Of a stretch of DNA of 64,000 nt, positions 2,737-62,385 are shown in pieces. Position numbers and translations under genes: made by a program. The number at the start of each line of letters is the position of its first letter. Position 1 is the stretch's first letter. Origin of the DNA: Spirochaetia bacterium. Lineage in GTDB: Bacteria > Spirochaetota > Spirochaetia > SZUA-6 > Bin103. Below the pieces are notes generated by a model. That model was not told the origin of the DNA. It did no database searches and was given only the letters and a program-made list of their open reading frames with translations. The stretch covers positions 6,592,001 to 6,656,000 of the forward strand of contig CBDBDQ010000005.1 in NCBI GenBank assembly GCA_965203905.1, given 5' to 3'.

Positions 2737-4413
2737 GTGAGCGACCGCCCGAACATCCTGGTGTTGATGACCGATCAGCAGCGTGCCGACGCGATGGGCT
2801 GCGCAGGCAACCCGGTGCTTCGCACACCCGCCATGGACGCCATCGCGGCCTCCGGGGTGCGCTTTACCAATGCCTGCGCCTCCACCCCGGTGTGCGTGGC
2901 CTCGCGCATGAGCTTCATCACCGGCCACCGGGCGGCGCGCACGCACTGGATGGACAACAGCGCCCTGCCCGGCCCGGTGCCGGAGCTGCCCACCATGATG
3001 GGCCTGCTGCTGCGCGCCGGCTACTGGACCCACGGCGTCGGCAAGATGCACTTCCGCGGCCGCTCCTACGGCTTCCGCAACCTGCTCACCATGGAGGAGG
3101 GCGTCGAGCACCGCGTCGACGACGACTACCTGCGCTACCTGCGCGATGCCGGCGTGCAGGCGCGCTTCCCGAAGGGGATGCGCGACCTGCTCTACTTCCA
3201 GCCGCAGACCAGCGGCGTGCCGGTGGAGCACAGCGCCAGCAACTGGGTCGCCGACCGCTCCATCGAGTTCCTGCAGGAGCACGCCCGCTACCGGCCCGAT
3301 CAGCCGTTCTTCCTGTGGTCCTCCTGGATCGCGCCGCACCCGCCGTTCGCTCCCAGCGCACCCTACGACGAGCTGTACGAGCCGGGCGCCATGGCGTTGC
3401 CGGAGTACGCCGACCGCCCGGCGGTCGACCTGCCCTCGGCACTGTGGCCGCACCGCGCCCGCCTCGACGGCGCACACCGCGATCCCGACCGCATGCGCCG
3501 CATCCGCGCCCTCTACTACGGCCTGATCGGCCAGGTCGACGACGGCATCGCCCGCATCATGGCGGCGCTGCGCGAGCTGCGGCTAGACGAGAACACGGTG
3601 GTGTTGTTCACCGCCGACCACGGCGAGATGCTCGGCGACCACGGCCTGTCGCAGAAGAACTGTCCCTACGAGCCGTCGGTGCGCGTGCCGCTGCTGCTGC
3701 GCTGGCCGGGACGGACGCACCCCGGCGCCACCTGCGACCACCCCGTCGGCCTCACCGACGTGCTGCCCACCCTGGTGGCGGAGCTGGGCCTCGATTACCC
3801 CGCCGACCAGGGACCGCTGCCCGGCGAGAGTCTGCTCGGCGTGCCTGGCGGCGGGCTCGCCTCCGGGCGCGGCGACTACGTGATCGACTACGGCCAGGGC
3901 GCGCGCCGCTGGATTGCGGTACGCACACGGCGCCACAAGTACGCGCTGTTCGCCTGCGACGGCGGGCGCGAGGAGCTGTACGAATTGGAGGCCGACCCGC
4001 ACGAACGCCACAACCTGACCGCGGCCGAGCCGGAGCTTACCGCCGCGTTCCGCGAGCGCGCCCTCGAATGGGAGCGCACCTCCGGCCTAGCCCAGGCGCC
4101 TGGCGAGTCCGCCTCATTCGAGGGCGCCCGGTTCCGCACCTGGCCCGGGCCGGCGGAGGTTCCCTCCGAGGAGGAACTGCGCGACGTGTCGGTCAACGAA
4201 GGTGCCTGGCCGAAGCGGGTCCCCGCCGACGAGTCCGCCGCCTTGGAGAGCTTCGCGGCCGCCTTCACCCGCGCCATCAGCAAGGAGACCACCCTCAGCC
4301 CCGACAAGCTCTCCCTAGCCAGCTACAAGCGCAAGCTCAGCCGCCTCGGCCCCCGCGACCCCGGCGAATCCCTCGTCGGAACCCCTTGGGAGCAAGCCTG
4401 GCACGACGCCTGA
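2737..4413 (+). CDS. sulfatase (Cys-type, formylglycine-dependent)
   Basis: RPNILVLMTDQQR, CVASR (CxxxR), GKMH, PHPP, FTADHGEMLGDHG. Confidence 0.92.
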   Translation: MSDRPNILVLMTDQQRADAMGCAGNPVLRTPAMDAIAASGVRFTNACASTPVCVASRMSFITGHRAARTHWMDNSALPGPVPELPTMMGLLLRAGYWTHGVGKMHFRGRSYGFRNLLTMEEGVEHRVDDDYLRYLRDAGVQARFPKGMRDLLYFQPQTSGVPVEHSASNWVADRSIEFLQEHARYRPDQPFFLWSSWIAPHPPFAPSAPYDELYEPGAMALPEYADRPAVDLPSALWPHRARLDGAHRDPDRMRRIRALYYGLIGQVDDGIARIMAALRELRLDENTVVLFTADHGEMLGDHGLSQKNCPYEPSVRVPLLLRWPGRTHPGATCDHPVGLTDVLPTLVAELGLDYPADQGPLPGESLLGVPGGGLASGRGDYVIDYGQGARRWIAVRTRRHKYALFACDGGREELYELEADPHERHNLTAAEPELTAAFRERALEWERTSGLAQAPGESASFEGARFRTWPGPAEVPSEEELRDVSVNEGAWPKRVPADESAALESFAAAFTRAISKETTLSPDKLSLASYKRKLSRLGPRDPGESLVGTPWEQAWHDA

Positions 4414-40681: not shown

Positions 40682-42475
40682 TCAATGCCCCATTTCTTGC
40701 TTCAGATCATGGTCAACCCAGAGACGGGCGAAGATCGGAAATTTCAGCGCTCCTATTCCGGCTTCGCCGTTATATCCTTTGATCCACGGCTGCGTGACAT
40801 GAAATAATGGGGTGTCGGGACCCCATATTACCCAGTGATTCCTGATCAGGTGCATGTCCATCTCTATAAGAATCTGTTTCTGTTCCTCATAGGTGCCAGC
40901 GGCCAAGGCTCTTTCGTACAAGCCGTCGTAAACCGGGTCGTTGCTCGCAACTGCGTTCCACGGACTCTCGGAGGAAAAAACGCCCACTGACAGTATTGGG
41001 TCAGCTACACCTGCAGCTCTCGTACCGGTCATGTCAAAATCTCTGGCTCCTATAGCCGCCACAGCTACCGGGCGGTCAACCACCTCGATCTCCATATCGA
41101 CTCCAATCTCACGCCAGTATGCAGCGACCAACTGGTCATAGCTTAGATCCGACTGCGCGGCGCTGCGCAGTAACGCGAACTTGAATCTGACGCCGTCGTC
41201 GCCACGAGGGTATCCGGCCTCATCAAGCAGCTCCTCTGCTCCCTCAGGATCATAGGTGTAGGCATCCTTGACCTCCTGAGGCCACTCTTCGAACGGGACG
41301 TAGAACCCGAGCACCGATGTCATCCCCATAGGTGTGGTACTTCCATAACCCTGAAAGTAGCTGTCGTTGATCGTCTCCAGGTCCATTGCCATCTGCATGG
41401 CGCGGCGCACCCGGATGTCGTCAAAGGGCGGCTTGCTTATGTGCGGGGTAAAGACGTTTTCGTTACCTTCCGAGAACGGCCAAATAATGAGTTCTGGACT
41501 TGTCTCCTTGAGCTTTTCGATCAGGTCGATAGACCGAACTTGGGAAGTTCCCGCCCAGCCTACGAAGTCAACCTGACCTGCGCGTAGTGCCGCCAGAAAT
41601 GTCGCTTCCTCCGGCATGATCGTCCACCTCAACTCATCAATGTAGGGCAAACGGTTCTCCGGGAACTTCTCGTCGTAGCCCCAGTAATCAGGATTCTTGC
41701 TATAGGCAAGTAAGCTACCCTCGACATAGTCATCCAGCACAAAGGGACCGGTACCTACCAGGTTCCTCCAATCCTCCATGTTGCCGTGTTCATCGATTAC
41801 CTCGGGGGGGTAGATAACCATACTATACCAGTCCGTGACAACGTTCACCGTACGGAGGTACGGTTGCTTCAGCCTGAACACAACGGTGTACTTGTCTGTG
41901 GCCGTTATCGACTCCCATTGGGGACTCCCGAGCTCACCTATTCCCGGGCTCGGTTCCGTGAAGCCGCTTCCCATACCCAACATGCGATGAAAATTATATT
42001 CGACATCCGCGGCGGTGAACTCCCTTCCGTTCATCGGGGGCTTGTCGTGCCACCGAACGCCTTGGCGGATATGGAAGGTATAGGCGAGGCCGTCGGTTGA
42101 AATCTCCCAGCTTTCGGCCAGCGAACCCTGTATCACGTGAATAGGCATCACGTAGCCGCCCTGAAAATGATACTCGTCCCTTGGCTTTGCCCAGTCCAAC
42201 TTGCCCAGCTTCTCTACCACGCCACCGACGGGTATATGCGCTATACCTGCAGTGTAGGTGTCAAACTGCCATGTCCAATCGAGCTTCATCACCCCGGTTA
42301 TGGTCCCGCCGTACTCCGGCGCGGTCACCATCTTGCCGGTGCTTGGGTCCAGCACCATTTCCTTTTCCGAGGCGGCTGCCGGCTGCTCTTCCGCGGCAGC
42401 GGCCCAGAGGCCGGTGGCGGCCAGAACCAGGACCAACGCAACCGCGAAGGTGGTGCCAATCTTTACCAGTGTCAT
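40682..42475 (-). CDS. ABC substrate-binding protein family 5 (cassette 2)
   Basis: Same conserved blocks as the cassette 1 SBP. Confidence 0.93.
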   Translation of the reverse strand: MTLVKIGTTFAVALVLVLAATGLWAAAAEEQPAAASEKEMVLDPSTGKMVTAPEYGGTITGVMKLDWTWQFDTYTAGIAHIPVGGVVEKLGKLDWAKPRDEYHFQGGYVMPIHVIQGSLAESWEISTDGLAYTFHIRQGVRWHDKPPMNGREFTAADVEYNFHRMLGMGSGFTEPSPGIGELGSPQWESITATDKYTVVFRLKQPYLRTVNVVTDWYSMVIYPPEVIDEHGNMEDWRNLVGTGPFVLDDYVEGSLLAYSKNPDYWGYDEKFPENRLPYIDELRWTIMPEEATFLAALRAGQVDFVGWAGTSQVRSIDLIEKLKETSPELIIWPFSEGNENVFTPHISKPPFDDIRVRRAMQMAMDLETINDSYFQGYGSTTPMGMTSVLGFYVPFEEWPQEVKDAYTYDPEGAEELLDEAGYPRGDDGVRFKFALLRSAAQSDLSYDQLVAAYWREIGVDMEIEVVDRPVAVAAIGARDFDMTGTRAAGVADPILSVGVFSSESPWNAVASNDPVYDGLYERALAAGTYEEQKQILIEMDMHLIRNHWVIWGPDTPLFHVTQPWIKGYNGEAGIGALKFPIFARLWVDHDLKQEMGH

Positions 42476-43165
42476 ACGTAACTCCGTATGTGGATTATCG
42501 AGAGTATTGCGCAGCGGACGCCCGCTCCCTGGCTACTCTCGCGCCCGCAACGCGGGTGGCCAGAAAGAGTCAATGGCCTGAAGCGCGCGACGTGCGACTC
42601 ACCGGGTTCACGTCGCGCGTGCGAGCGGTTCTTTGAGTATTACTTGCACCTCGTGTGGGCCGCGAACACCCGCAGGGGGGCCGCCGGCGACCCGCGATGC
42701 CCCGAAGTCATGCACCGTGGCGTGCGACGACACGGCAAAGCGTAGAAGGGGGAATGCGCGGCCAAGCGGTCCGGGAGTCACCGGACCGCGGAAATACGCG
42801 CCCTCCCGGGTGCGCCCCGGACGCTGCGTCGGGAGGGCGCGTCCAGTGCGTTTCAACGCACAGATCAACCAGTGCGACAGGACCGGACGCCGCGGTTCAG
42901 GCGGCGGGGATCCAGGACCGTTGCAGCGGCCACCGAACGAACGTGCCTTGAGCCGACGCCGAAGGTAGTCGGCCGCAATCCGGATGCGCAACGCGAAGGC
43001 CGCCGGGCGCTCCGCCGAAGCGGTTAAAGAATTATCATATAAAGAGTTGACTCGTGATGCGTGGGCCCGGGGGGGGGGGGGATGCACCGGCCGCATCGCT
43101 GCCATCCGGTTACTGGGCGGACGGTCCTGATGGCGTATGATCCTCATCCGTTTGCCCCTTGGGGT
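42476..43165 (-). ncRNA. candidate long structured 5' leader RNA (copy A, intact)
   Basis: Homologous to 55629-55763 + 60085-60535; many hairpins with compensatory changes; two c(UUCG)g loops on the - strand. Confidence 0.55.
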
Positions 43166-53840: not shown

Positions 53841-55628
53841 CTAGTGACCCATAGCTTCCTTCAGCTCACTATCAATCCAGAGGCGGGCGAAGATGGCGGT
53901 ATATTGACCGTTTCCCAACGCCCCTTCATTGTTAAACCCTTTGATCCACGGCTGGATCGCCACATACAGTGGGGCCCCAGGACCCCAAATCGTCCAGAAC
54001 TTCTCTATCCCATACTGATTCAACTCTCCGGCTATCCTGTTTTGCTCCTCGAGGGTGGTAGCGGCTCCGCCGGCTTCAAACTTGGCTGTATAAACCGGAT
54101 CGTTGACATTGGAGGTATTCCAAGGTGCGGCCGGCACATAGCGAAACATTACTGGCAATGGGTACCAAATACTGGCCCCCTCCGCGTTGATCATTTCGAA
54201 ATCCCTCTCATTTCTTCTAGGGCCATATGTAGCTGCTTCCTGTACATCAATCTCTACATTAACGCCAATCTTATTCCAGTATGAGGCGACTAATTCATCA
54301 TAGTTCAAATCGTACCGGACGAAATGCATCAACTCGGTCTTAAATCTAATGCCGTCCGCGCCGCGAGGATACCCGGCCTCATCAAGCAGCGCTTCGGCGC
54401 CTTCCGGGTCGTAGTCAAAGACCTTCTTGACATCTTCGGGCCAATCTTCAAATTGGGTGGCAACCTCTGTAAACATACGGTTTAGCAGCCCCTGAGGTAT
54501 TGCATCTGCATTACCCTTATAGTAGGCATTGTTAATTTCTTCGAGGTTTATTGCCATCTGCATTGCCTTGCGCACCCTGATGTCGTCGAAGGGCTCTATC
54601 TGAACGTTCATGCCAAACATAGTCCCCCCACTCCCGACGGAAAACGACGATATCACGACTTCAGGGTTGGTCCGCTGGAGGCTCTCTACCTGGTCGAGAC
54701 TCCTCATTGCGGCTTGGCCGTTCCGACCTAGGTAATCAACCCGACCCGTGCGCAGTGCCGCCAGCTGTGTTGCCGGTTCCGGCATAGTCAGGGCCCTTAA
54801 CCGGTCAACATAGGGCAAGCGGTTCTCCGGGTATTTTTCGTCGTAGCCCCAGTAGTCAGGATTCTTGTCCCAGGTGATAGAGCTGCCCTCGGTCCAGTCA
54901 GTCAGCATAAAGGGCCCGGTGCCGACCAGGTTCCTCCAATCCGTAACGTCCCCATGTTCCTTGATTACCTCGGGGGGGTATATCCGAGCCATGTTGCCGT
55001 CGAGCATAGCAACCAGCGCAAAGAGGTGTGGCTCCTTCAGCTTGAAAACTACCGTCCATTTGTCGGTGGCCGTTACCGATTCCACTTGCACATCGCGCCA
55101 GCTAGTAGCAAATTCGCTACGTTCGGTGAAACCGCTGCCAAGTCCCAAGATACGGTGAAAGTTGTACTCGATATCTTGGGCAGTCAGTTCCCGACCGTTC
55201 ATCGGCGGCTTATCATGCCAGCGAACGCCCTGGCGGACTTTGACGATATACGTCAGTGAGTCGGGCTGCGACCAGCTTTCCGCCAACTGCCCTTTCGTGT
55301 TAGCTGGTACGTTGAGAAACTGGAAGTTCCATTTGACCCTGGGCGTTGCCCAGTCGCCCCAGGCCAGCTTCTCTAAAACGCCATCGATGCCTCCCACCGA
55401 ACCAGAGACCACCAAGTCAGTACCCGGCGGCTCTTCTTTTTGGGCGAAGGTCAGTGTCCCGCCATACTCCGGCGCGGTCACCACCTTGCCGGTGGAGGGG
55501 TCGGTCACATACTTCTTGTCAGCCGCGGCTGCCGGCTCCTCTTCTGTGCCACCCGCCCAAAGGCCGGTTGCGGTCAGGGCGAGGACCAACGCAATCGCGA
55601 AGGTCATTCTGATTTTTACAATGTTCAT
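53841..55628 (-). CDS. ABC substrate-binding protein family 5 (cassette 4)
   Basis: Same conserved blocks as the other three SBPs. Confidence 0.93.
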   Translation of the reverse strand: MNIVKIRMTFAIALVLALTATGLWAGGTEEEPAAAADKKYVTDPSTGKVVTAPEYGGTLTFAQKEEPPGTDLVVSGSVGGIDGVLEKLAWGDWATPRVKWNFQFLNVPANTKGQLAESWSQPDSLTYIVKVRQGVRWHDKPPMNGRELTAQDIEYNFHRILGLGSGFTERSEFATSWRDVQVESVTATDKWTVVFKLKEPHLFALVAMLDGNMARIYPPEVIKEHGDVTDWRNLVGTGPFMLTDWTEGSSITWDKNPDYWGYDEKYPENRLPYVDRLRALTMPEPATQLAALRTGRVDYLGRNGQAAMRSLDQVESLQRTNPEVVISSFSVGSGGTMFGMNVQIEPFDDIRVRKAMQMAINLEEINNAYYKGNADAIPQGLLNRMFTEVATQFEDWPEDVKKVFDYDPEGAEALLDEAGYPRGADGIRFKTELMHFVRYDLNYDELVASYWNKIGVNVEIDVQEAATYGPRRNERDFEMINAEGASIWYPLPVMFRYVPAAPWNTSNVNDPVYTAKFEAGGAATTLEEQNRIAGELNQYGIEKFWTIWGPGAPLYVAIQPWIKGFNNEGALGNGQYTAIFARLWIDSELKEAMGH

Positions 55629-55944
55629 ACGTTTCTCCGTATGTGGATTTTTCGAGAGTATTGCGAAGCGGATTGCCGCTTCCTGGCTACTCTCGCGCCC
55701 GCAACGCAGGCGACCAGCCAGATAGAGTCAACTTCCTGAAGCGCGCGGCGTGTGACTCACCGTTATTGCGTTGCGCGCCCAAGGGCGGGGTGAGGGCGTA
55801 CCGGTTGCAGTGACGATGACGTAGGCGGAGGAGCGACAGGGGCGTAAAGTGTGAAGCCCGCAGCAGGTAAATGCTGCGGGCTTCACTTTTAGGCGGCCTC
55901 GGCGAGCGGAAGACAACCGCCCGCCGAGGCCCGAGAGGCAGCGA

Positions 55945-56769
55945 GTGTCCGAGGGTGCAACCGAGGCACACGCGCTCCCGTTCGCGACGACGAACTACCA
56001 GGCGGATCAGGACGGAACCTTGCGCGCCGTGCTGCCGTCGCGGTGTGTCTACGCCACGGGGGAGCAGACGTGTGCCATCTTCGTCGATCATTACCGCGAG
56101 CGCAAGACCGGGCCCCGCTATCCGCTAGCGGTGGTGGGGTGCGGGGTGCATGGGGGCCGGCGCTACACCCTGTATCCGCCCGGACACTACCCCTACGGAC
56201 GGGTGGCGGTGGTGCCCTACAGCGCAGGCGGAGACGTGCTGTTGGACGCAACCGGCAAACGACCGCAGTGGCAGGTGACGCTGTTCGGGGCCGCGCAGGA
56301 TGCGAAGCAGGGGAAGCTGTGGCCAGCCGAGCAGCACTGGTGGCAAGCGTTGAGTACGCCCTGCCGGCGCATCCAGGGACGGCGCCTGGAGCTGGCCGGT
56401 CGGTTGACCGGGGTCAGCCCGGAGTTGGACCAGCGGCAGCGGGAGCAGATCGCGACGCGCTTGGGAGTGGCGACCATGACCGTGCTCTGGGGAGCGCGCT
56501 GCTGGGGGCGCAGCTGGCGCAGCCGCGGCGTAGCGATCATGGCGGTGTTGCTGGCGCTGGCGGTCAGCGCGACGCTGGGGGAGCGCATGGGTGCGGCTGG
56601 TGCGGTCAGCGACCTGTGGGGGCCACCGCGCCCGCGGCTGGTGGCGCGCTGGGAGCAGGCCGGCCAGAGCTGGGTGGTGGCCGCGAGCGGTCGTTCAGCA
56701 GCGCGGGAACAGGGGGTTGTCGACCACCTTCGGGGACGGGCGCCCCCGGCCACGAAAGCGCTTATTTGA
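55945..56769 (+). CDS. transposon ORF1, hypothetical Cys/His-rich (putative Zn-binding) protein
   Basis: C..C...H.RERKTGP....CGVH...TLYPPG.PYGR; first gene of a co-oriented run inside the IRs. Confidence 0.65.
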   Translation: MSEGATEAHALPFATTNYQADQDGTLRAVLPSRCVYATGEQTCAIFVDHYRERKTGPRYPLAVVGCGVHGGRRYTLYPPGHYPYGRVAVVPYSAGGDVLLDATGKRPQWQVTLFGAAQDAKQGKLWPAEQHWWQALSTPCRRIQGRRLELAGRLTGVSPELDQRQREQIATRLGVATMTVLWGARCWGRSWRSRGVAIMAVLLALAVSATLGERMGAAGAVSDLWGPPRPRLVARWEQAGQSWVVAASGRSAAREQGVVDHLRGRAPPATKALI

Positions 56770-56798
56770 AGCCTCCCGTACGGCGCTACGGTAGGCGC

Positions 56799-58205
56799 AT
56801 GAATGATTCGTCACGTCCCCCGTTACCGATCTCGGCTACCGCGCTGCTGCGCTACCTGGTGATCGCCGAGATGGAGGCCCTGGTGTTGCGCGGGTGGCCT
56901 GCGGGCGCCGCGGTACGCAAGGTTGCCCGCGCACCGCGGATCGACCTGGACGGTCGTCCGGTGCGGATCAGCGTGCGTACCCTGCAACGCTGGCGCGCGG
57001 CCTGGGCGAGCGGTCGGCTCGCCGCCCTGGAGCCGCAGCCGCGCACCCGCACCGAGACCTCACTGGCGCTGAGTCCGCAACTGGTCACCTTTCTGCGCAC
57101 CGAGAAGCAACGTGATGTGCGCGCCTCGGTGCCGGAACTGGTGCGGCGGGCGCGCGAGCGCGGCATCATCCCGGTCGACGCCAAGATCGATCGCACCACG
57201 GTGTGGCGCGCCTGTCGGCGAATGGGCCTGCCGACGCGTCAGCGACCACACAAACACGAAGCGGACACGCGTCGCTGGCGCTATGCCGAGCGCATGCAGT
57301 GCGTGCTTGCCGACGGCAAGCACTTCCGCGCCGGCGCAGCGCGGCTGCGGCGGGTGGCGCTGTTCTTCCTCGACGATGCCACCCGCTACGGCCTGGAGGT
57401 GGTGGTGGGCACCGCGGAGTCCAGCGAGCTGTTCCTGCGCGGCCTCTACGAGGTGGTCATGCACCACGGCACTGCGGATCTGTACTACCTGGACAAAGGC
57501 CCGGGCTTCATCTCCAAGGACACCCTGGCCGTGGTCCAGGGCGGCCTGGGCACCTTGCTGATTCACGGCGCCACCAGGTATCCCGAGGGCCACGGCGCCA
57601 TCGAGCGCTTCCATCGCACCGCTTACGATCAGGTGCTGCGTTCCTTCGACGGTGCCGCCGACGTGGACCCCGCTTGCCAGGCACTCACGCTGCGCCTGCG
57701 CCACTTCCTGAACCGCTACAACGACACCCCGCACGAGACGCTCGGCAAGGACACCCCGCGCCAGCGCTGGGAGCAGGGACGGGAGTTGCGCTTTCCCACC
57801 GACGAGGCCGATCTGTATCGCCGCTTCGTGGTGCGCGCCATGCACAAGGTCTCCAACGATCACGTCATCAAGGCCGCCGGTCGGTTGTGGGAAGCGCCGC
57901 GCCGCAGCGCCCGCTGTTGGGTCGAGGTGGCGCGCCACGTGCTCGACGGGCGGCTGTGGGTTCAGCACCAAGGGCGCATGATCGAGCTGGCCGAGCTGGA
58001 TCCCCACGCCAACGCGACCTCACCGCGCGGCTCCGGCAGCGCGCCACAACCGACCGCCGACGAGGACGGCGAGGAACTCCCCGCCACCGCGGCCGGCATC
58101 GCCTACGCCAACGACACCCGCCCGCTGGTCGACCCCGACGGCGGCTACCGCGACCCGCAGGACGACCAACAGGACGACCAACACGTCCAGGAGCAGCAGC
58201 CATGA
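56799..58205 (+). CDS. DDE transposase (rve/Mu-like)
   Basis: N-terminal HTH SVRTLQRW; ADGKH, FLDDATRY, YLDKGPGF, GAIERFHRT, YNDTPHETL. Confidence 0.9.
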   Translation: MNDSSRPPLPISATALLRYLVIAEMEALVLRGWPAGAAVRKVARAPRIDLDGRPVRISVRTLQRWRAAWASGRLAALEPQPRTRTETSLALSPQLVTFLRTEKQRDVRASVPELVRRARERGIIPVDAKIDRTTVWRACRRMGLPTRQRPHKHEADTRRWRYAERMQCVLADGKHFRAGAARLRRVALFFLDDATRYGLEVVVGTAESSELFLRGLYEVVMHHGTADLYYLDKGPGFISKDTLAVVQGGLGTLLIHGATRYPEGHGAIERFHRTAYDQVLRSFDGAADVDPACQALTLRLRHFLNRYNDTPHETLGKDTPRQRWEQGRELRFPTDEADLYRRFVVRAMHKVSNDHVIKAAGRLWEAPRRSARCWVEVARHVLDGRLWVQHQGRMIELAELDPHANATSPRGSGSAPQPTADEDGEELPATAAGIAYANDTRPLVDPDGGYRDPQDDQQDDQHVQEQQP

Positions 58206-59005
58206 GCCACGACCTCAGCCCACTGGGCTTCCGCAAGACCCCCTTTACTCGCGAGTTGACCGTGCGCGAGTGCTTCCCGCTCGAACCTCAGGCCCAGGTC
58301 GCCGCCGCACTCACCGCGGCGGTGCAGGAGCGCATGAGCGCCGCCCTCATCGCTCCCGCCGGCACCGGCAAGACCGTCGCCTTGCGCATGCTCGTCGCCA
58401 CCCTGCCGGAGGTGCGCTTCCAGGTCCACTACGTCAAGGTGACCGGCCTCTCCAAGCGTGACCTGTGCAAGGAAATCGCGGTCGCCTGCGGCCTCTCTCC
58501 CACCGGGATCTATCCCGCTCTGGTGCGCAAGCTGCAGGACGCGTTCGAACATACCGTCAGCGACGGCATGCGCCCCGTCATCCTGCTCGACGAAGCCCAT
58601 GATCTGCGCCCCGAAGCGTTGGCCATGTTGCGCGTCCTCACCAACTTCACAATGGACAGTCGCCTCGTCGTGTCCCTCGTGCTCGCCGGCCAGCCACTCC
58701 TGAAACTGCTGCTCCGGCGCCCTGAACAAGCCGCCATCGCGCAGCGCCTGGCGCACTACGCCGAACTGCGCCTGCTGTCCCGCGATGAGACCCGCGCCTA
58801 CCTCGAACATCGCTGCACCCTCGCCGGCGCTCGCACCAATCCCTTCGACGACGACGCTCAGGAAACCATCTTCGAAATGAGCCGCGGCAACCTGCGTGCC
58901 ATCGACCGCTTGGCCCTGGCGGCGCTGCACCACGCCGCCAAGTCTTCTCACACCACCGTCAGTGCCGGCGACGTGATCGCCGCGCGCAAGTACCTGTGGC
59001 CATGA
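58202..59005 (+). CDS. ExeA-like AAA ATPase (transposition helper)
   Basis: LGFRKTPF, APAGTGKT, LLDEAHDL, LAGQP, SRGNLRAID; ATGA overlap with transposase. Confidence 0.88.
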   Translation: MSHDLSPLGFRKTPFTRELTVRECFPLEPQAQVAAALTAAVQERMSAALIAPAGTGKTVALRMLVATLPEVRFQVHYVKVTGLSKRDLCKEIAVACGLSPTGIYPALVRKLQDAFEHTVSDGMRPVILLDEAHDLRPEALAMLRVLTNFTMDSRLVVSLVLAGQPLLKLLLRRPEQAAIAQRLAHYAELRLLSRDETRAYLEHRCTLAGARTNPFDDDAQETIFEMSRGNLRAIDRLALAALHHAAKSSHTTVSAGDVIAARKYLWP

Positions 59006-59940
59006 CCACACCGCTGCCCACCGTTCCGGTGCATGCCATCGATCCCCAGCCCGACGCTCCCCAGTGGCTGGTGCGCGACCTCTGGACCACCGCGGCTGTC
59101 GGCGTGATCGGGGGCAGCCCCAAGGTTGGCAAGTCCTGGCTCGGCCTTGACCTCGCCGTCTCGGTCGCGTCCAGCACCCCGGCCCTCGGGCGGTTCCCGG
59201 TCGAGGCCACCGGCCCCGCCCTGGTCTATCTCGCCGAGGATGCTCTGCCACGCGTCCGCGACCGTGTCGCCCACTTGTGCCGCCACCGCGGTTTGGATCT
59301 GGCACGCCTCGATCTGCACGTCGTCACTGCTGACCGCTTGCGCCTCGATACCGAGCGCGACCAGCTCGCTCTCGACCAGACCGTGCAACGGATCCGCCCG
59401 GCACTACTGCTGTTGGACCCTCTGGTCCGACTTCATTCCCTCGATGAGAACAGCGCTTCAGACATCTCTTCTCTGCTCGGCTTTCTGCGCGCACTCAACC
59501 GCCGCTATCAACTCGCTGTGGTCCTCGTCCACCACCTGGCCAAGCGCTCGCGCCGCAATCTCGGCCAGTCCCTGCGCGGCTCCTCCGATCTGCATGCCTG
59601 GACCGACTCCGCCTGCTATCTGGTGCGGCGTCCCGACGACCGTCTGCAACTCACCGTCGAGCATCGCTCCGCTCCCGCTCCAGACCCCCTGCTGTTGCGC
59701 CTCTCAGGCGGCGCCGACCAGCCCCTCTCGCTGCTCGTCGACAACGCTGCCGCCGCCCCGCCTCCCCCGCTCGCCGAGGCGGTGCGCGCCACGCTCCGCA
59801 GCGCCGGCCAGCCGCTCTCCAGGACCGCTCTGCGGCAACGCTTGCGCGTCAACAACGCCCGTCTCGGTCTCGCCCTCCAAACTCTCCAACAGCACGGCCT
59901 CGCCGTCCGCGGCCCCAACGGCTGGCACCTGCCGGCCTGA
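59002..59940 (+). CDS. AAA_25 / RepA-like RecA-fold helicase with C-terminal wHTH
   Basis: WLVRDLW, GSPKVGKS, YLAED, LLDPLVRLH.LDEN, VHH, LRGSS; ATGA overlap with the ATPase. Confidence 0.85.
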   Translation: MTTPLPTVPVHAIDPQPDAPQWLVRDLWTTAAVGVIGGSPKVGKSWLGLDLAVSVASSTPALGRFPVEATGPALVYLAEDALPRVRDRVAHLCRHRGLDLARLDLHVVTADRLRLDTERDQLALDQTVQRIRPALLLLDPLVRLHSLDENSASDISSLLGFLRALNRRYQLAVVLVHHLAKRSRRNLGQSLRGSSDLHAWTDSACYLVRRPDDRLQLTVEHRSAPAPDPLLLRLSGGADQPLSLLVDNAAAAPPPPLAEAVRATLRSAGQPLSRTALRQRLRVNNARLGLALQTLQQHGLAVRGPNGWHLPA

Positions 59941-60084
59941 CCGGCACCGTCGCCTGCCTACTCGCTCTCGTTCCGCCATTCCCGCGTTCCGCACCAGGGA
60001 CGCGCTCGGAACGGAACGACCACCGTACACACTCCGTGCCAACTATCGTGCAACTCGCCTCGGCTCAGGGCGCGCAACGCAACA

Positions 60085-60535
60085 ACCGGGTTCACCCGGG
60101 CTCACGCCGCGCGCGCGAGCGGCTCTTTGAGTACTACTTGCACCTCGTCGTGGGGGCAGGGAGTAACCCGGCCGCGGAGAACCCACGGCACCAAGACGCG
60201 CCCCGGACGCTGCGCCGGGAGGACGCGCATAGTGCGTCGGAGCGCGCATTTCAAGCAGCGCGACAGGATAGCACGCCGCGATTCAGGAGCCGGGGATCCA
60301 GGACCGTTGCAGCGGCCAGTGAACGAACCTGCATTGGACCGGCGCCGGAGGTAGCCGGCCGCAACCCGGATGCTGAAGTCGAAGGCCGCGGTGCGATCAG
60401 CCGGAGCGGTCAGTTTCTCGGTTCGAATAGCTGCCGGGGGGGACGATTGGATGCACCGGTTGCGTCATCGCCATCCGGTTACTCTGCAGACGGCCGTGAT
60501 GGTGCATTATCCGCATCCGTTCGATCCTGAAGTTT
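60085..60535 (-). ncRNA. candidate structured leader RNA copy B, distal part (proximal part at 55629-55763)
   Basis: Collinear homology to ~42601-43165 with an internal gap; c(UCCG)g loops in place of c(UUCG)g. Confidence 0.5.
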
Positions 60536-60609
60536 CGTAGCATTTCACGCTCGCTTGGAAGTGTCAAGCTCACCCCCCGGGCCGGGACGGACCGGAGTTG
60601 GCATGGGAG

Positions 60610-62258
60610 AAACAGGGCTGCAAGCCTATACTGGGGGTTAGTCTTCGAGGGAGCGCGAAGTAGGCCGGCGATGCACTGGTGTAGCGCCCTGCGGCGAACC
60701 CGTTGTCAAGCTTGGTCCCGAGGCCCGTGGCGTTGTCATTGGTGAGGCTCAGCCCGCGACCGGTTGCGGTGGTGATCCATCCCGATAAGGAGAATGCGCA
60801 GTTGCTTCACGCCTTGGCCGCTCCACTCATTCCCAGGAGGAGTCATGGCACGACGCAAACGCAGAAGCAAACGCAGCGGCAAGGGCAATCGCTCGGCGCA
60901 GCCGCAGGTGGTGCACCCCGAGGCGGCAGGCCTGGATGTGGGCGCCACCATGATCTACGCGGCGGTACGCGCTGAGCGCGCCGAGCAGCCGATCCAATCG
61001 TTCCCGACCTTTACCCGCGATCTGCATGCCTTGGCCGATTGGCTGAGTACCTGCCAGGTAACCACGGTGGCCATGGAGTCGACCGGCGTGTACTGGATCC
61101 CGGTGCACCAGATCCTGGAAGCACGCGGCTTCGAGGTGGTGCTGGTCAACGCTCGCCACGTGCGCTCGGTGCCCGGTCGCAAGAGCGACGTCGAGGACTG
61201 CGAATGGCTGCGTTGCCTGCACTCGGTAGGGTTTCTGCGCGGCTCGTTCCGACCGGCTGACGAGGTATGTGCGGTGCGCTCCTTGTTGCGCCATCGCGAC
61301 AGCGTGATCAAGACCGCCTCCCGCAGCGTACTGCACATGCAGAAGGCGTTCGATCAGATGAACGTCCATCTGCACCACGCGATCTCCGATCTGACCGGGC
61401 TCAGCGGCCTGGCCATCACCGACGCCATCCTGGACGGAGAGCGCGACCCGACGCGCTTGGCGAAGCTGGCGCACCCGCGGATCAAGGCCAGCCGTGCCAC
61501 CCTGATCAAGGCTCTGGAGGGTGATTGGCGCAGCGAACATCTGTTCACCTTGCGCCACGCACGCCAGACCTATGCGCACTACCAGCAGCTCATCAGTGAG
61601 TGTGACCAGGAGATCATGGCCCGCATCCGCGCGTTCGAGCAGACCCAGGAGCCGCCCGCCGCGACCGCTACCGACCAGCAACCGCCGGAATCCCCTGAAC
61701 CGGGCCCGGAACCGCCTGCGTCGCCTCCGCAAGCGTGCAACATGAAAGCCCACCTGACGCGGTTGTTCGGCACCGACCTGACCCTCATTCCCGGTATCGG
61801 CGACACTACCGCGCTGGTGCTGTTCAGCGAACTCGGCCCCGATCTGTCACGCTTTCCGAGCGCCGCGCAGTTCGCATCCTGGTTGAACCTCTGTCCGCAG
61901 AACAAGATCACCGGCGGCAAGGTGATCAGCTCTCAGACGGGGCCCGGCGCCAACCGTGCGGCACAGGCGCTGCGCATGGCAACCCAGACCCTGTACCGCA
62001 GCCACTCCGCGCTCGGTGACTTCTTCCGCCGCAAGCGGGCCCGCGTCGGCTCCCCGCAGGCGATTACCGACACCGCCCACAAGCTGGCGCGCATCATCTA
62101 CCACCTGGTGACCCGCCACGTCCTCTACGATGACAACGTTCTGCTCCAGCAACAGCGCCAGGACCGTAAACGCCATGAACGGCGACTTCGAAATCAGGCC
62201 CGCGCTCTCGGCTTCAAACTCGTTCCGGAGGCTGCCTGAATGCTTGGTTTCTAAGGAG
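60610..62258 (+). mobile_element. IS110-family insertion sequence (left end uncertain by a few bp)
   Basis: DEDD transposase, ~230-bp non-coding left end with TATACT -10, short right end GTTTCTAAGGAG. Confidence 0.75.
60845..62239 (+). CDS. IS110-family transposase/recombinase
   Basis: AGGAGG RBS; GLDVG, AMESTGVYW, KSDVEDC, IPGIG, WLNLCP...TGGK, AHKLARIIY. Confidence 0.95.
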   Translation: MARRKRRSKRSGKGNRSAQPQVVHPEAAGLDVGATMIYAAVRAERAEQPIQSFPTFTRDLHALADWLSTCQVTTVAMESTGVYWIPVHQILEARGFEVVLVNARHVRSVPGRKSDVEDCEWLRCLHSVGFLRGSFRPADEVCAVRSLLRHRDSVIKTASRSVLHMQKAFDQMNVHLHHAISDLTGLSGLAITDAILDGERDPTRLAKLAHPRIKASRATLIKALEGDWRSEHLFTLRHARQTYAHYQQLISECDQEIMARIRAFEQTQEPPAATATDQQPPESPEPGPEPPASPPQACNMKAHLTRLFGTDLTLIPGIGDTTALVLFSELGPDLSRFPSAAQFASWLNLCPQNKITGGKVISSQTGPGANRAAQALRMATQTLYRSHSALGDFFRRKRARVGSPQAITDTAHKLARIIYHLVTRHVLYDDNVLLQQQRQDRKRHERRLRNQARALGFKLVPEAA

Positions 62259-62385
62259 CGTGCGCAGACTCGACTGACTCGACGACTGGACTCGACTTGA
62301 ACATCGTCTTCCAAGTCACGGACTGACCGTGCCGAATCCGTTGCGCCTCGCACCTTGGAGACGATAGATTTCAGTGCGGAACGTA

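Follow-up and report, generated by a model that had tools for sequence, protein, structure and literature searches.

A widespread, unnamed bacterial DDE transposon family with a portable RepA-like ATPase gene and adjoining palindrome

The window analysed here is a stretch of 64,000 nucleotides from the genome of a Spirochaetia bacterium (GTDB lineage SZUA-6; Bin103; assembly GCA_965203905.1, contig CBDBDQ010000005.1, positions 6,592,001 to 6,656,000 of the forward strand). At positions 55764-60084, the window carries a transposon of 4321 nt, which is bounded by 17-nt terminal inverted repeats and comprises four intact, co-oriented open reading frames (ORFs). The last three genes are linked by ATGA overlaps at 58202-58205 and 59002-59005. 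These repeats, genes and overlaps, together with an imperfect target-site duplication and an empty site near position 42601, had been proposed from the sequence (hereafter the original prediction), and all of them are borne out. The features are as follows.

42601..42605, paralogous empty site, ACCGG, within gactcaccgggttcac, in a duplicated intergenic region
55759..55763, left target-site duplication, ACCGT, the last base of which is unlike that of the right copy
55764..55780, plus strand, left terminal inverted repeat, TATTGCGTTGCGCGCCC, with tandem TTGCG
55851..55886, plus strand, perfect 15-bp stem-loop followed by TTTT, terminator-like, upstream of ORF1 (-20.5 kcal/mol, z -7.86)
55945..56769, plus strand, ORF1, 274 amino acids, Cys/His Zn-ribbon-like protein
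56799..58205, plus strand, DDE transposase, 468 amino acids, helix-turn-helix (HTH) and rve core, TnsB/MuA-like
58202..59005, plus strand, AAA_22 AAA+ ATPase, 267 amino acids, TnsC/MuB-like, ATGA overlap with the transposase gene
59002..59940, plus strand, AAA_25 RepA-like RecA-fold ATPase, 312 amino acids, with a C-terminal winged-helix-like region, ATGA overlap with the AAA_22 gene
59970..60017, 48-nt palindrome of tandem pentamers (GTTCC..ATTCC..GTTCC / GGAACGGAAC)
60068..60084, minus strand, right terminal inverted repeat, reverse complement TGTTGCGTTGCGCGCCC
60085..60089, right target-site duplication, ACCGG

The two terminal repeats, TATTGCGTTGCGCGCCC and TGTTGCGTTGCGCGCCC, are identical at 16 of 17 positions, and the pair forms the longest inverted repeat of the region (33 nt at 79%). 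The flanking duplication matches at four of its five positions. The boundaries of the element are exact, because an uninterrupted paralogous site, which reads gactcACCGGgttcac, is present at 42601-42605. This empty site lies within the same window because the intergenic region is duplicated: the insertion site (55400-55760, with its twin at 42450-42600) is located upstream of paralogous genes for ABC-transporter substrate-binding proteins, one of which is a 595-amino-acid ORF on the minus strand (53841-55628).

A DNA search covering the whole assembly (7.99 Mb, 5 contigs) retrieved four copies with common boundaries, the window copy included, at 100, 100, 95 and 88% identity. The second 100% copy lies 123 kb away and is identical over all 4321 nt. 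Each of the three non-window copies is flanked by a perfect 5-bp duplication (ACCGT, ACCGC and CCAGG). The presence of two 100% identical copies at different sites, together with the 5-bp duplications, indicates that the element is mobile and has been active lately. The element at 55764-60084, intact and recently active, belongs to a widespread and unnamed family of DDE transposons from bacteria, 4.1-4.9 kb in length; that a real mobile family lies behind it is practically certain. Seven copies of the window's type (A-type) in other genomes also exhibit perfect 5-bp duplications (CGTGC, GCCTC, AGGGC, ACATC, GCTCT, CCAGC and CTGCC), while a clean duplication is missing at four others. A target preference for ACCGN, found at three of the four own-genome sites, was considered and rejected, as the A-type duplications elsewhere all differ and show no consensus.

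The right end of the element terminates in ACA. At the left end, this lineage has TAT, and A-type copies that are more distant have TGT. Each end has just one candidate subterminal GTTGCA site; that of the left end, a possible second site, lies 41 nt inside. The original prediction had suggested that the TAT may have immobilised this copy. This is in line with the TGT ends of the distant A-type relatives and with TGT/ACA ends being the rule in Tn7-like and IS481 elements, as stated in PMC11406308. However, all four own-genome copies start with TAT, including the two that are identical over 4321 nt at different sites, and TAT starts are also observed in two further genomes (three copies and one copy, respectively) and in a Gemmatimonadales metagenome-assembled genome (MAG), whose copy is flanked by a perfect GCCTC duplication. 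As TAT is shared by all four copies and by relatives elsewhere, it is the normal left end of this lineage rather than a lesion, and immobilisation of the window copy is very improbable.

With regard to the proteins, the transposase exhibits only sub-threshold Pfam matches (HTH, and rve_3 at 18.5 against a cut-off of 26.5), and its best named match is the NCBIfam IS481 model NF033577, at 95.2 bits against a cut-off of 224. Its DDE triad (D172, D232 and E269) is invariant across four families (alignment A3). The transposase profile matches TnsB of ShCAST, a type V-K CRISPR-associated transposon (CAST), at 1e-13 over positions 36-372, and the PHROG phrog_310, a Mu-type transposase, at 7.7e-25; the transposase of a sister family, family C (see below), also carries a Mu-transpos_C domain at 27 bits, above the cut-off of 21.7. 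The third protein matches Pfam AAA_22 at 75.9 bits, with its Walker A residues at G54, G56 and K57 and its Walker B residues at D130 and E131 (alignment A2). Its best solved relatives are TnsC of ShCAST (ShTnsC, 3e-8) and MuB (1.3e-7), and it matches phrog_296, annotated as a DNA transposition protein, at 5.8e-33. PHROGs thus pairs both proteins with transposable-phage counterparts. IstB_IS21 is not among the nine Pfam matches of the AAA_22 protein at E<=0.01.

As had been claimed, Pfam and NCBIfam reveal no TniQ, resolvase or cargo gene among the four element proteins, and the ORF1 of the window has no match in either database. In 16 aligned A-type homologues of ORF1, the residues C43, C66 and H69, an RxRKTGP motif and a TxYPP..P..R motif are invariant, which fits a putative Zn-binding domain. 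ORF1 is likely a divergent relative of the DUF6431-like ORF1 of sister families: the A-type ORF1 aligns with the other-type ORF1s at 68.5% probability in hhalign (E 4.6e-5), and several sister ORF1s exhibit DUF6431 matches, all below the cut-off (the best at 25.5 against 26.6 bits). An identity of ORF1 as a TniQ is not supported, since no TniQ match was obtained with Pfam and NCBIfam for the window ORF1 or with Pfam for the sister ORF1s, although the two may be related at the level of the fold. Neither TnsA nor TniQ was found by Pfam/NCBIfam in the four proteins or in 11 sister ORF1s. When two ORF1 profiles were compared with the PDB, no TniQ or TnsD chain was retrieved; one profile matched nothing and the other matched generic zinc ribbons at E>=0.006.

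The fourth protein is the most unusual. It matches Pfam AAA_25 at 115.2 bits against a cut-off of 27, and its sole strong solved relative is the RepA helicase of plasmid RSF1010 (PDB 1g8y), at 4.6e-5 for the single sequence and 8.7e-13 for a six-sequence profile. The alignment with 1g8y covers residues 29-197 and spans the GxxGKS, AED, LDP/T, HHxxK and QxxRGSS motifs. The Walker A motif, the catalytic glutamate, the Walker B motif, the histidine sensor and the Arg/RGSS motif are all intact, and K44, E79/D80, D139, H177/H178, Q189 and R192 are invariant among the homologues (alignment A1). AAA_25 is thus inferred to be a ring helicase of the RepA/DnaB type. Its tail, from about residue 240 to residue 312, shows sub-threshold matches only, all of them to winged-helix domains (GntR, MarR, HTH_20 and DprA_WH), and contains a putative recognition helix, RVNNARL, with N285. 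A search for defence systems with PADLOC gave no match for AAA_25 or for ORF1. AAA_25 is the best-conserved protein of the element, with 46-78% identity (alignment A1) against 22-29% for the transposase and the AAA_22 protein. These profile matches substantiate the original reading of the element as a Mu/Tn7-like transposon with a DDE transposase, an AAA+ partner and a fourth, RepA-like gene.

The four genes recur in this order. AAA_25 matches were found in 17 of 61 related genomes, often in many copies, and three further families were delimited by the comparison of 3-4 copies each. All three exhibit the same four-gene order as the window element, with a Cys-rich ORF1 in first position that contains a CPxC ... 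RRxxCxxxC pattern.

Family B, 4167 nt, duplications seemingly of 4 bp
Family C, 4161 nt, TGTCAG ends, 5-bp duplications GCAGG, CGTGT and CCATG
Family D, 4273 nt, duplications seemingly of 4 bp

Subterminal repeated sites are clear in family C, as well as in the E-type elements described below. One family B copy (genome G020) is interrupted at L022:2320-3937 by a 1.6-kb insertion with its own inverted ends and an 8-bp duplication, CCGAGAGC.

When one genome per GTDB species was scanned with the AAA_25 alignment, at least 546 stretches matched, and 509 of the 546 listed were confirmed to encode AAA_25 relatives. The 80 best of these at least 509 confirmed relatives, picked by AAA_25, were retained as a locus set. 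All 80 are from MAGs of more than 12 phyla; the record names include Gemmatimonadota, Chloroflexota, Acidobacteriota, Actinomycetota, Myxococcota, Planctomycetota, Alpha- and Gammaproteobacteria, Verrucomicrobiota, Elusimicrobia, Nitrospirae, Deinococcota and others. The AAA_22 gene lies directly upstream of AAA_25 on the same strand in 65 of the 71 loci with at least 850 nt of room, and the transposase gene lies upstream of AAA_22 in 53 of 54 loci with room. ORF1 is detectable by BLAST in 35 of 51 loci; 13 of the other 16 were inspected, and every one has an upstream ORF of 176-240 amino acids with CxxC motifs. The predicted recurrence of the four genes within inverted repeats across genomes is therefore observed in many phyla. 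In a wider protein collection, the AAA_25 clade comprises at least 5090 protein clusters at E<=1e-20, which carry source names such as "AAA family ATPase", "RecA-family ATPase", "AAA domain" and "hypothetical protein", and many of which are on contigs of 4-5 kb.

With the AAA_22 profile, matches were obtained in 28 of the 61 related genomes, and these included multi-copy elements of 3.2-3.6 kb with three genes only: a Zn-ribbon ORF1, the transposase and the AAA_22 ATPase. The three-gene elements exhibit TGT ends with subterminal repeats and 5-bp duplications (e.g., CCGAC and ACCGT), and they end about 140 nt past the AAA_22 gene. Among the near-full-length AAA_22 matches in the 61 genomes, about 36 are followed by AAA_25 and about 46 are not, by a hand tally of copies rather than of independent events. 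Cultured bacteria hold the three-gene form on plasmids, for example Geobacillus stearothermophilus pGS18 (NC_010420.1) and Cupriavidus necator N-1 pBB2 (NC_015724.1), where NCBI labels the genes "DUF6431 domain-containing protein", "IS481 family transposase" or "DDE-type integrase", and "AAA family ATPase" or "ATP-binding protein". The genome under study holds a three-gene relative at C5:5300450-5302289 (Zn-ribbon ORF, transposase and AAA_22 ATPase), beside which an ORF looks, by reading alone, like a tyrosine recombinase, and also a truncated C-type fragment with ORF1 and the N-terminus of the transposase (G000:C5:4575048-4576284).

Phylogenetic trees of the transposase and of AAA_25 were built with FastTree (LG model) and midpoint-rooted, and their topology was taken without support values. 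The transposase tree comprises 91 distinct sequences: 70 are from four-gene elements, 17 from three-gene elements where a fourth gene would have had room, and 4 from undecided ones, the loci being partly chosen by AAA_25. As three-gene and four-gene elements interleave in this tree, AAA_25 does not belong to the ancestral core. Family C is sister to three-gene elements, and the four-gene element L030 falls within a group of three-gene E-type elements: it has kept their terminal repeat, and AAA_25 is inserted just before this repeat, so that an E-type backbone carries AAA_25 and the palindrome. Family C also provides the clearest case of an exchange. Its AAA_25 is 78% identical to that of the window element, in contrast to 28% for the transposase and 30% for the AAA_22 protein, and its ends differ. 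The DNA similarity between the two is confined to element positions 3251-4255, that is, from 12 nt into the AAA_25 ORF to 78 nt past its stop codon, and it stops 1 nt after the palindrome.

AAA_25 is thus a portable accessory module, gained, lost and swapped among transposons, and the gene and its downstream palindrome travel as a single unit. In the original prediction, the four genes defined a compact and poorly described class of transposons. No description was found, as discussed below, but AAA_25 is not part of the core, and the three-gene relatives are complete without it. It had also been put forward that AAA_25 would be a passenger if it were missing from most homologous elements. This holds in half, given the tally above; yet AAA_25 is no ordinary passenger, since it is the best-conserved protein, its RepA motifs are intact, its slot between AAA_22 and the right repeat is constant and it travels with a cis site. 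The fixed slot and the translational coupling both argue against a mere passenger, and AAA_25 very probably serves the element.

The palindrome (GTTCCGCCATTCCCGCGTTCCGCACCAGGGACGCGCTCGGAACGGAAC at 59970-60017) is located 30 nt past the stop codon of AAA_25 and 67 nt inside the right end of the element; across elements, it lies 57-134 nt from the right terminus. It comprises 2-3 NTTCC pentamers, a spacer of about 8-20 nt, often with CTAYAG, and 2-3 GGAAN pentamers. Of the 70 loci with 150 nt or more 3' of AAA_25, 38 contain it there according to a strict regular expression, which gives 3 matches in the other 571,633 bases of these loci and 7 matches in the 7.99 Mb of the own genome, 4 of which are within the four copies. 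A covariance model built from 35 instances matches 57 of the 80 loci at E<=0.01, including 23 outside the training set, or 53 of the 70 loci with room (hand count). The model matches families A, B, C and D as well as L030, gives a single match in the 64-kb window and, even at E<=0.1, matches none of the 14 loci with three-gene elements. When right ends from three phyla are aligned, the palindrome is the only invariant block; the TTCC and GGAA letters are invariant across phyla, while the flanks diverge. Two or three palindromes occur in tandem at L075:4060-4201 and L048:7977-8190, and one further locus (L111) has more of them elsewhere. A different conserved stretch of about 60 nt (GCCTGGCGAAACGGAAGC...GGGATAGCCAGG) directly follows the AAA_25 stop codon in four loci from different taxa (L068, L070, L104 and L122); it has no match in Rfam at gathering thresholds.

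The pentamers vary jointly on both arms, as GTTCC/GGAAC, CTTCC/GGAAG or TTTCC/GGAAA. Residue 285 of AAA_25, in the putative recognition helix, is N in 25 of 27 loci of the GTTCC class (K in the other 2) and T in 4 of 4 loci of the TTTCC class and 4 of 5 of the CTTCC class, the T- and C-class loci forming separate clades of the AAA_25 tree. That the pentamer variant tracks residue 285 is suggestive, and we consider it somewhat probable that AAA_25 binds the palindrome.

The palindrome could instead be merely an operon terminator, or a hairpin in RNA or single-stranded DNA unrelated to AAA_25, which would then act elsewhere, for example on host DNA. Individual palindromes do fold readily in single-stranded form, at -16.7 kcal/mol (z -3.2) for the window copy and as low as -23.1 kcal/mol (z -8.0) elsewhere, the palindrome stands directly after the last gene, and the outer base of the stem covaries symmetrically. 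However, no T-run follows the palindrome of the window, a terminator scan called neither it nor the hairpin at 55851-55886, and its two arms differ in the spacing of their pentamers. In addition, the palindrome is absent after the last gene of three-gene elements, whereas it is located within coding sequence in family B and in L090, and a hairpin would not readily account for TTCC/GGAA letters that are invariant across phyla between divergent flanks. The consensus fold obtained with RNAalifold is weak (-4.58 kcal/mol, 6 pairs). A conserved RNA was rejected on the same grounds, since the pair counts are symmetric but only one pair of columns covaries. Taken together, a terminator or hairpin without relation to AAA_25 is quite improbable.

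A link to replication is provided by the relatives of AAA_25. L090 encodes a helicase-primase of 651 amino acids, in which AAA_25 is followed in the same frame by a CHC2 zinc finger (41.3 bits) and a Toprim_2 domain (43 bits). A frameshifted remnant of a primase gene of this type is present within inverted repeats in L055 (3651-8399), and AAA_25 has a small CHC2 ORF after it in four loci from Planctomycetia (L072, L086, L087 and L088). The PHROG matches of AAA_25 fall on the helicase parts of phage primase-helicases. In Tn7-like elements without TnsA, the 3' ends are joined to the target, which leaves a branched intermediate that needs replication and gives cointegrates (according to PMC11406308). 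The proteins of the three-gene core (ORF1, transposase and AAA_22 ATPase) should make 5-bp staggered insertions of the Mu/Tn7 type, and a helicase gene with an adjoining conserved site hints that the element helps to copy itself.

Based on these observations, the best overall explanation in our view, with a probability of roughly 0.5, is that the portable module serves transposition at its replication step, by supplying an initiator-helicase together with the site where it is loaded. The winged helix of AAA_25 would recognise the NTTCC/GGAAN palindrome near the right end, and AAA_25 would assemble there, 67 nt inside this end, as a ring helicase. It would then unwind the element, so that the 3'-OH ends of the strand-transfer (Shapiro or figure-eight) intermediate could be extended through it. 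In some relatives, the element's own DnaG-like primase may prime this replication. The module would not be required, because three-gene elements do without it; it would act as an enhancer or as a route to host independence. A helicase role of AAA_25 in the replication step, considered for itself, comes slightly below an even chance. More tentative is the wider view of a portable "mini-replication" module, comprising an initiator-helicase, sometimes a primase and an origin-like palindrome, with which the element would recruit and load its own helicase and which moves between unrelated backbones.

The roles originally proposed for the helicase also included target selection. The location of the conserved site inside the element and the association with primases favour replication over target selection, and the swap of the module between unrelated backbones, together with the internal site, argues against a target selector, so that, of the proposed roles, replication now seems favoured and target selection less so. 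A rival reading is that AAA_25 and its winged helix act as a regulatory or architectural factor of the transpososome, comparable to selectors of the TnsD/TnsE/TniQ type or to factors of the IHF/HU type, which would bind the palindrome or the AAA_22 filament, mark the right end and control orientation, immunity or target choice. The translational coupling of AAA_25 to AAA_22 by the ATGA overlap and the position of the palindrome, 57-134 nt from the right terminus and beside the presumed transposase sites, are compatible with such a factor. So are three proteins among the longer homologues (P0121, P0122 and P0124, 609-737 amino acids) that contain both AAA_22 and AAA_25; they are either real fusions hinting at joint action or frameshift artefacts at the ATGA overlap, and each is the single member of its cluster. 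Nevertheless, the module swaps among elements with differing ends and transposase and AAA_22 proteins of only 28-30% identity, which does not suggest an intimate, co-evolved interface, an internal binding site is ill-suited to a target selector, and neither the conservation of the full set of RepA helicase motifs nor the association with primases would be expected. A regulatory factor is therefore unlikely.

Another alternative is that AAA_25 and the palindrome are a selfish replication module derived from a plasmid or phage, which hitch-hikes on the transposon or replicates a circular or excised form of it, with no role in transposition. Its repeated gain and loss across the transposase tree and its dispensability in three-gene elements agree with this view, as does the fact that, beyond the clade, plasmid RepA helicases and phage primase-helicases are most closely related to it. 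The contig of L066 (4577 nt) also agrees, as it begins and ends with the terminal repeats of a single A-type element and contains nothing else. This contig and the other contigs of 4-5 kb probably reflect the collapse of repeats during assembly, although they may represent a free form. On the other hand, the slot between AAA_22 and the right repeat is constant and translationally coupled, and searches of 72,556 plasmids and 50,697 phage records revealed no member of the AAA_25 clade, giving only 2, 5 and 142 distant, partial matches to the helicase domain (25-37% identity). We know of no TnsB-type transposon without TnsA that excises, and no circle junction was seen among the assembled contigs, which is weak evidence. 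Assembled contigs do contain joints that skip about 4326 nt, but with sides of only 20-41 nt in a region with paralogues; these joints most likely stem from the paralogous empty sites and are no evidence of excision. A selfish module of this kind appears improbable.

Several observations weigh against a replication module. Helicase activity, ring formation and palindrome binding of AAA_25 are all deduced from sequence, and the winged-helix assignment of its tail derives from sub-threshold Pfam and PDB matches. The covariation between residue 285 and the pentamer corresponds to about two independent events, as kin share labels, and 17 of the 70 loci with sequence after AAA_25 have no model match at E<=0.01 (hand count). 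It is also possible, given its hairpin folding, that the palindrome is a terminator or a single-strand signal. A primase-like fifth gene is present in only 6 of the 80 loci, which are themselves a biased sample, as they were chosen by AAA_25. The high conservation of AAA_25 could be due in part to recent exchange of the module rather than to constraint. Finally, three-gene copies are 99.9-100% identical and number up to 8 per genome, and the existence of such complete, multi-copy elements means that the module is dispensable for this type of transposition chemistry.

If the replication module is real, its significance would be as follows. In Mu, the hand-over to the replisome depends on host restart proteins, and, to our knowledge, Mu is the only replicative DDE transposon for which this hand-over is known in detail. 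An element with its own helicase and loading site, and at times its own primase, would solve the problem in a second, simpler way, and four small proteins and a single 48-nt site would suffice to test the hand-over directly. The mini-replication module would then be the counterpart, among DDE transposons, of self-synthesising elements such as casposons. In any case, the family is large, unannotated and often present as stand-alone contigs of 4-5 kb, so that recognising it makes annotation better and accounts for breaks in assemblies. With its Zn-ribbon partner other than TniQ, the compact TnsB/TnsC-like core is also a useful comparison for the machinery of type V-K CASTs.

Some further features of the region and of the copies were recorded. 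An IS110-family-like element of about 1.7 kb (window ~60562-62259, transposase ORF 60794-62239) begins about 480 nt downstream of the transposon and is separate from it; it is present in 5 copies at 100% identity in the genome, itself included. In the 88% copy of the transposon (G000:C5:7727933-7729614; L004/L005), the first 92 nt are parted from the rest by a 1.68-kb insertion inside the left-end hairpin. The insert encodes a transposase of 461 amino acids and shares about 1 kb, at 78% DNA identity, with the IS110-like element of the window; insertion into hairpins is typical of the IS110 family. A scan of 55600-60300 for sigma-70 promoters found none. In the metatranscriptome library X17, contigs of a 90-95% identical relative cover about 56821-60064, for which DNA carry-over is a possible source.

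In comparison with known systems, the nearest kin of the window element are the three-gene DUF6431/DDE/AAA elements (e.g., those of pGS18 and pBB2, and the elements E1-E5 in relatives of the genome under study), which themselves seem uncharacterised. They share its gene order and its first three protein families, exhibit TGT-type ends accompanied by subterminal repeats, make 5-bp duplications and occur in multiple copies, but lack AAA_25, the pentamer palindrome and the primase. A literature search on DUF6431 returned unrelated papers only, none of which characterises this group. More generally, no description of the three- or four-gene form was found in the literature searched, the element lists in paper supplements and ISfinder/TnCentral being outside this search, and no helicase-bearing relative is mentioned in the parts consulted of two reviews or surveys (PMC11406308 and PMC10293859).

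Mu and the TnsA-less Tn7-like elements, especially the core of type V-K CASTs (TnsB, a small TnsC and a Zn-finger TniQ), share with the window element an rve DDE transposase with an N-terminal HTH, a small AAA+ partner, the 5-bp duplication, a small Zn-binding third protein and, in part, ends of the TGT/ACA type (ACA on the right; on the left, TAT in this lineage and TGT in more distant A-type copies). In contrast to these systems, ORF1 of the window element lies upstream of the transposase gene and has no detected TniQ domain, and the element has no Cas12k, guide RNA, phage genes or cargo, while it carries an additional RepA-like helicase and a cis site. The Tn7-like group in the strict sense is defined by TnsA and a TniQ/TnsD selector, neither of which is found here. 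Tn5053/Tn402 (TniA, TniB, TniQ and TniR, with res) also combines a DDE transposase with an AAA+ protein without TnsA, and it makes a 5-bp duplication; the window element, unlike it, has no TniQ, serine resolvase or res site. IS21 (IstA/IstB) and IS481 share the DDE transposase, and IS21 also the AAA+ helper, whereas the window element has four genes in 4.3 kb and an IS481 score far below the cut-off. By the way it acts, the core belongs beside Mu, Tn5053 and those Tn7-like elements that lack TnsA, and it falls outside Tn7-like elements in the strict sense, Tn5053, IS481 and IS21.

As for the fourth protein, the RepA of RSF1010 (PDB 1g8y) shares with AAA_25 the Pfam domain and all motifs for ATPase activity and DNA coupling. 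RSF1010 RepA has no winged-helix tail and is loaded by a separate initiator at the iterons of the plasmid, whereas AAA_25 possesses a fused putative DNA-binding tail and is encoded in a transposon. Possible functional analogues are the alpha protein of phage P4, a primase-helicase with a C-terminal winged-helix domain that binds the origin, and the large T antigen of SV40, which reads GAGGC pentamers. They resemble AAA_25 in the combination of a ring helicase and a DNA-binding domain with inverted 5-6-nt repeats nearby and, optionally, a fused primase, as in L090; this is proposed as a functional analogy, and the site is at a transposon end instead of a plasmid or viral origin. The new part of the window element, compared with all these systems, is the module: the helicase, its site and, sometimes, a primase.

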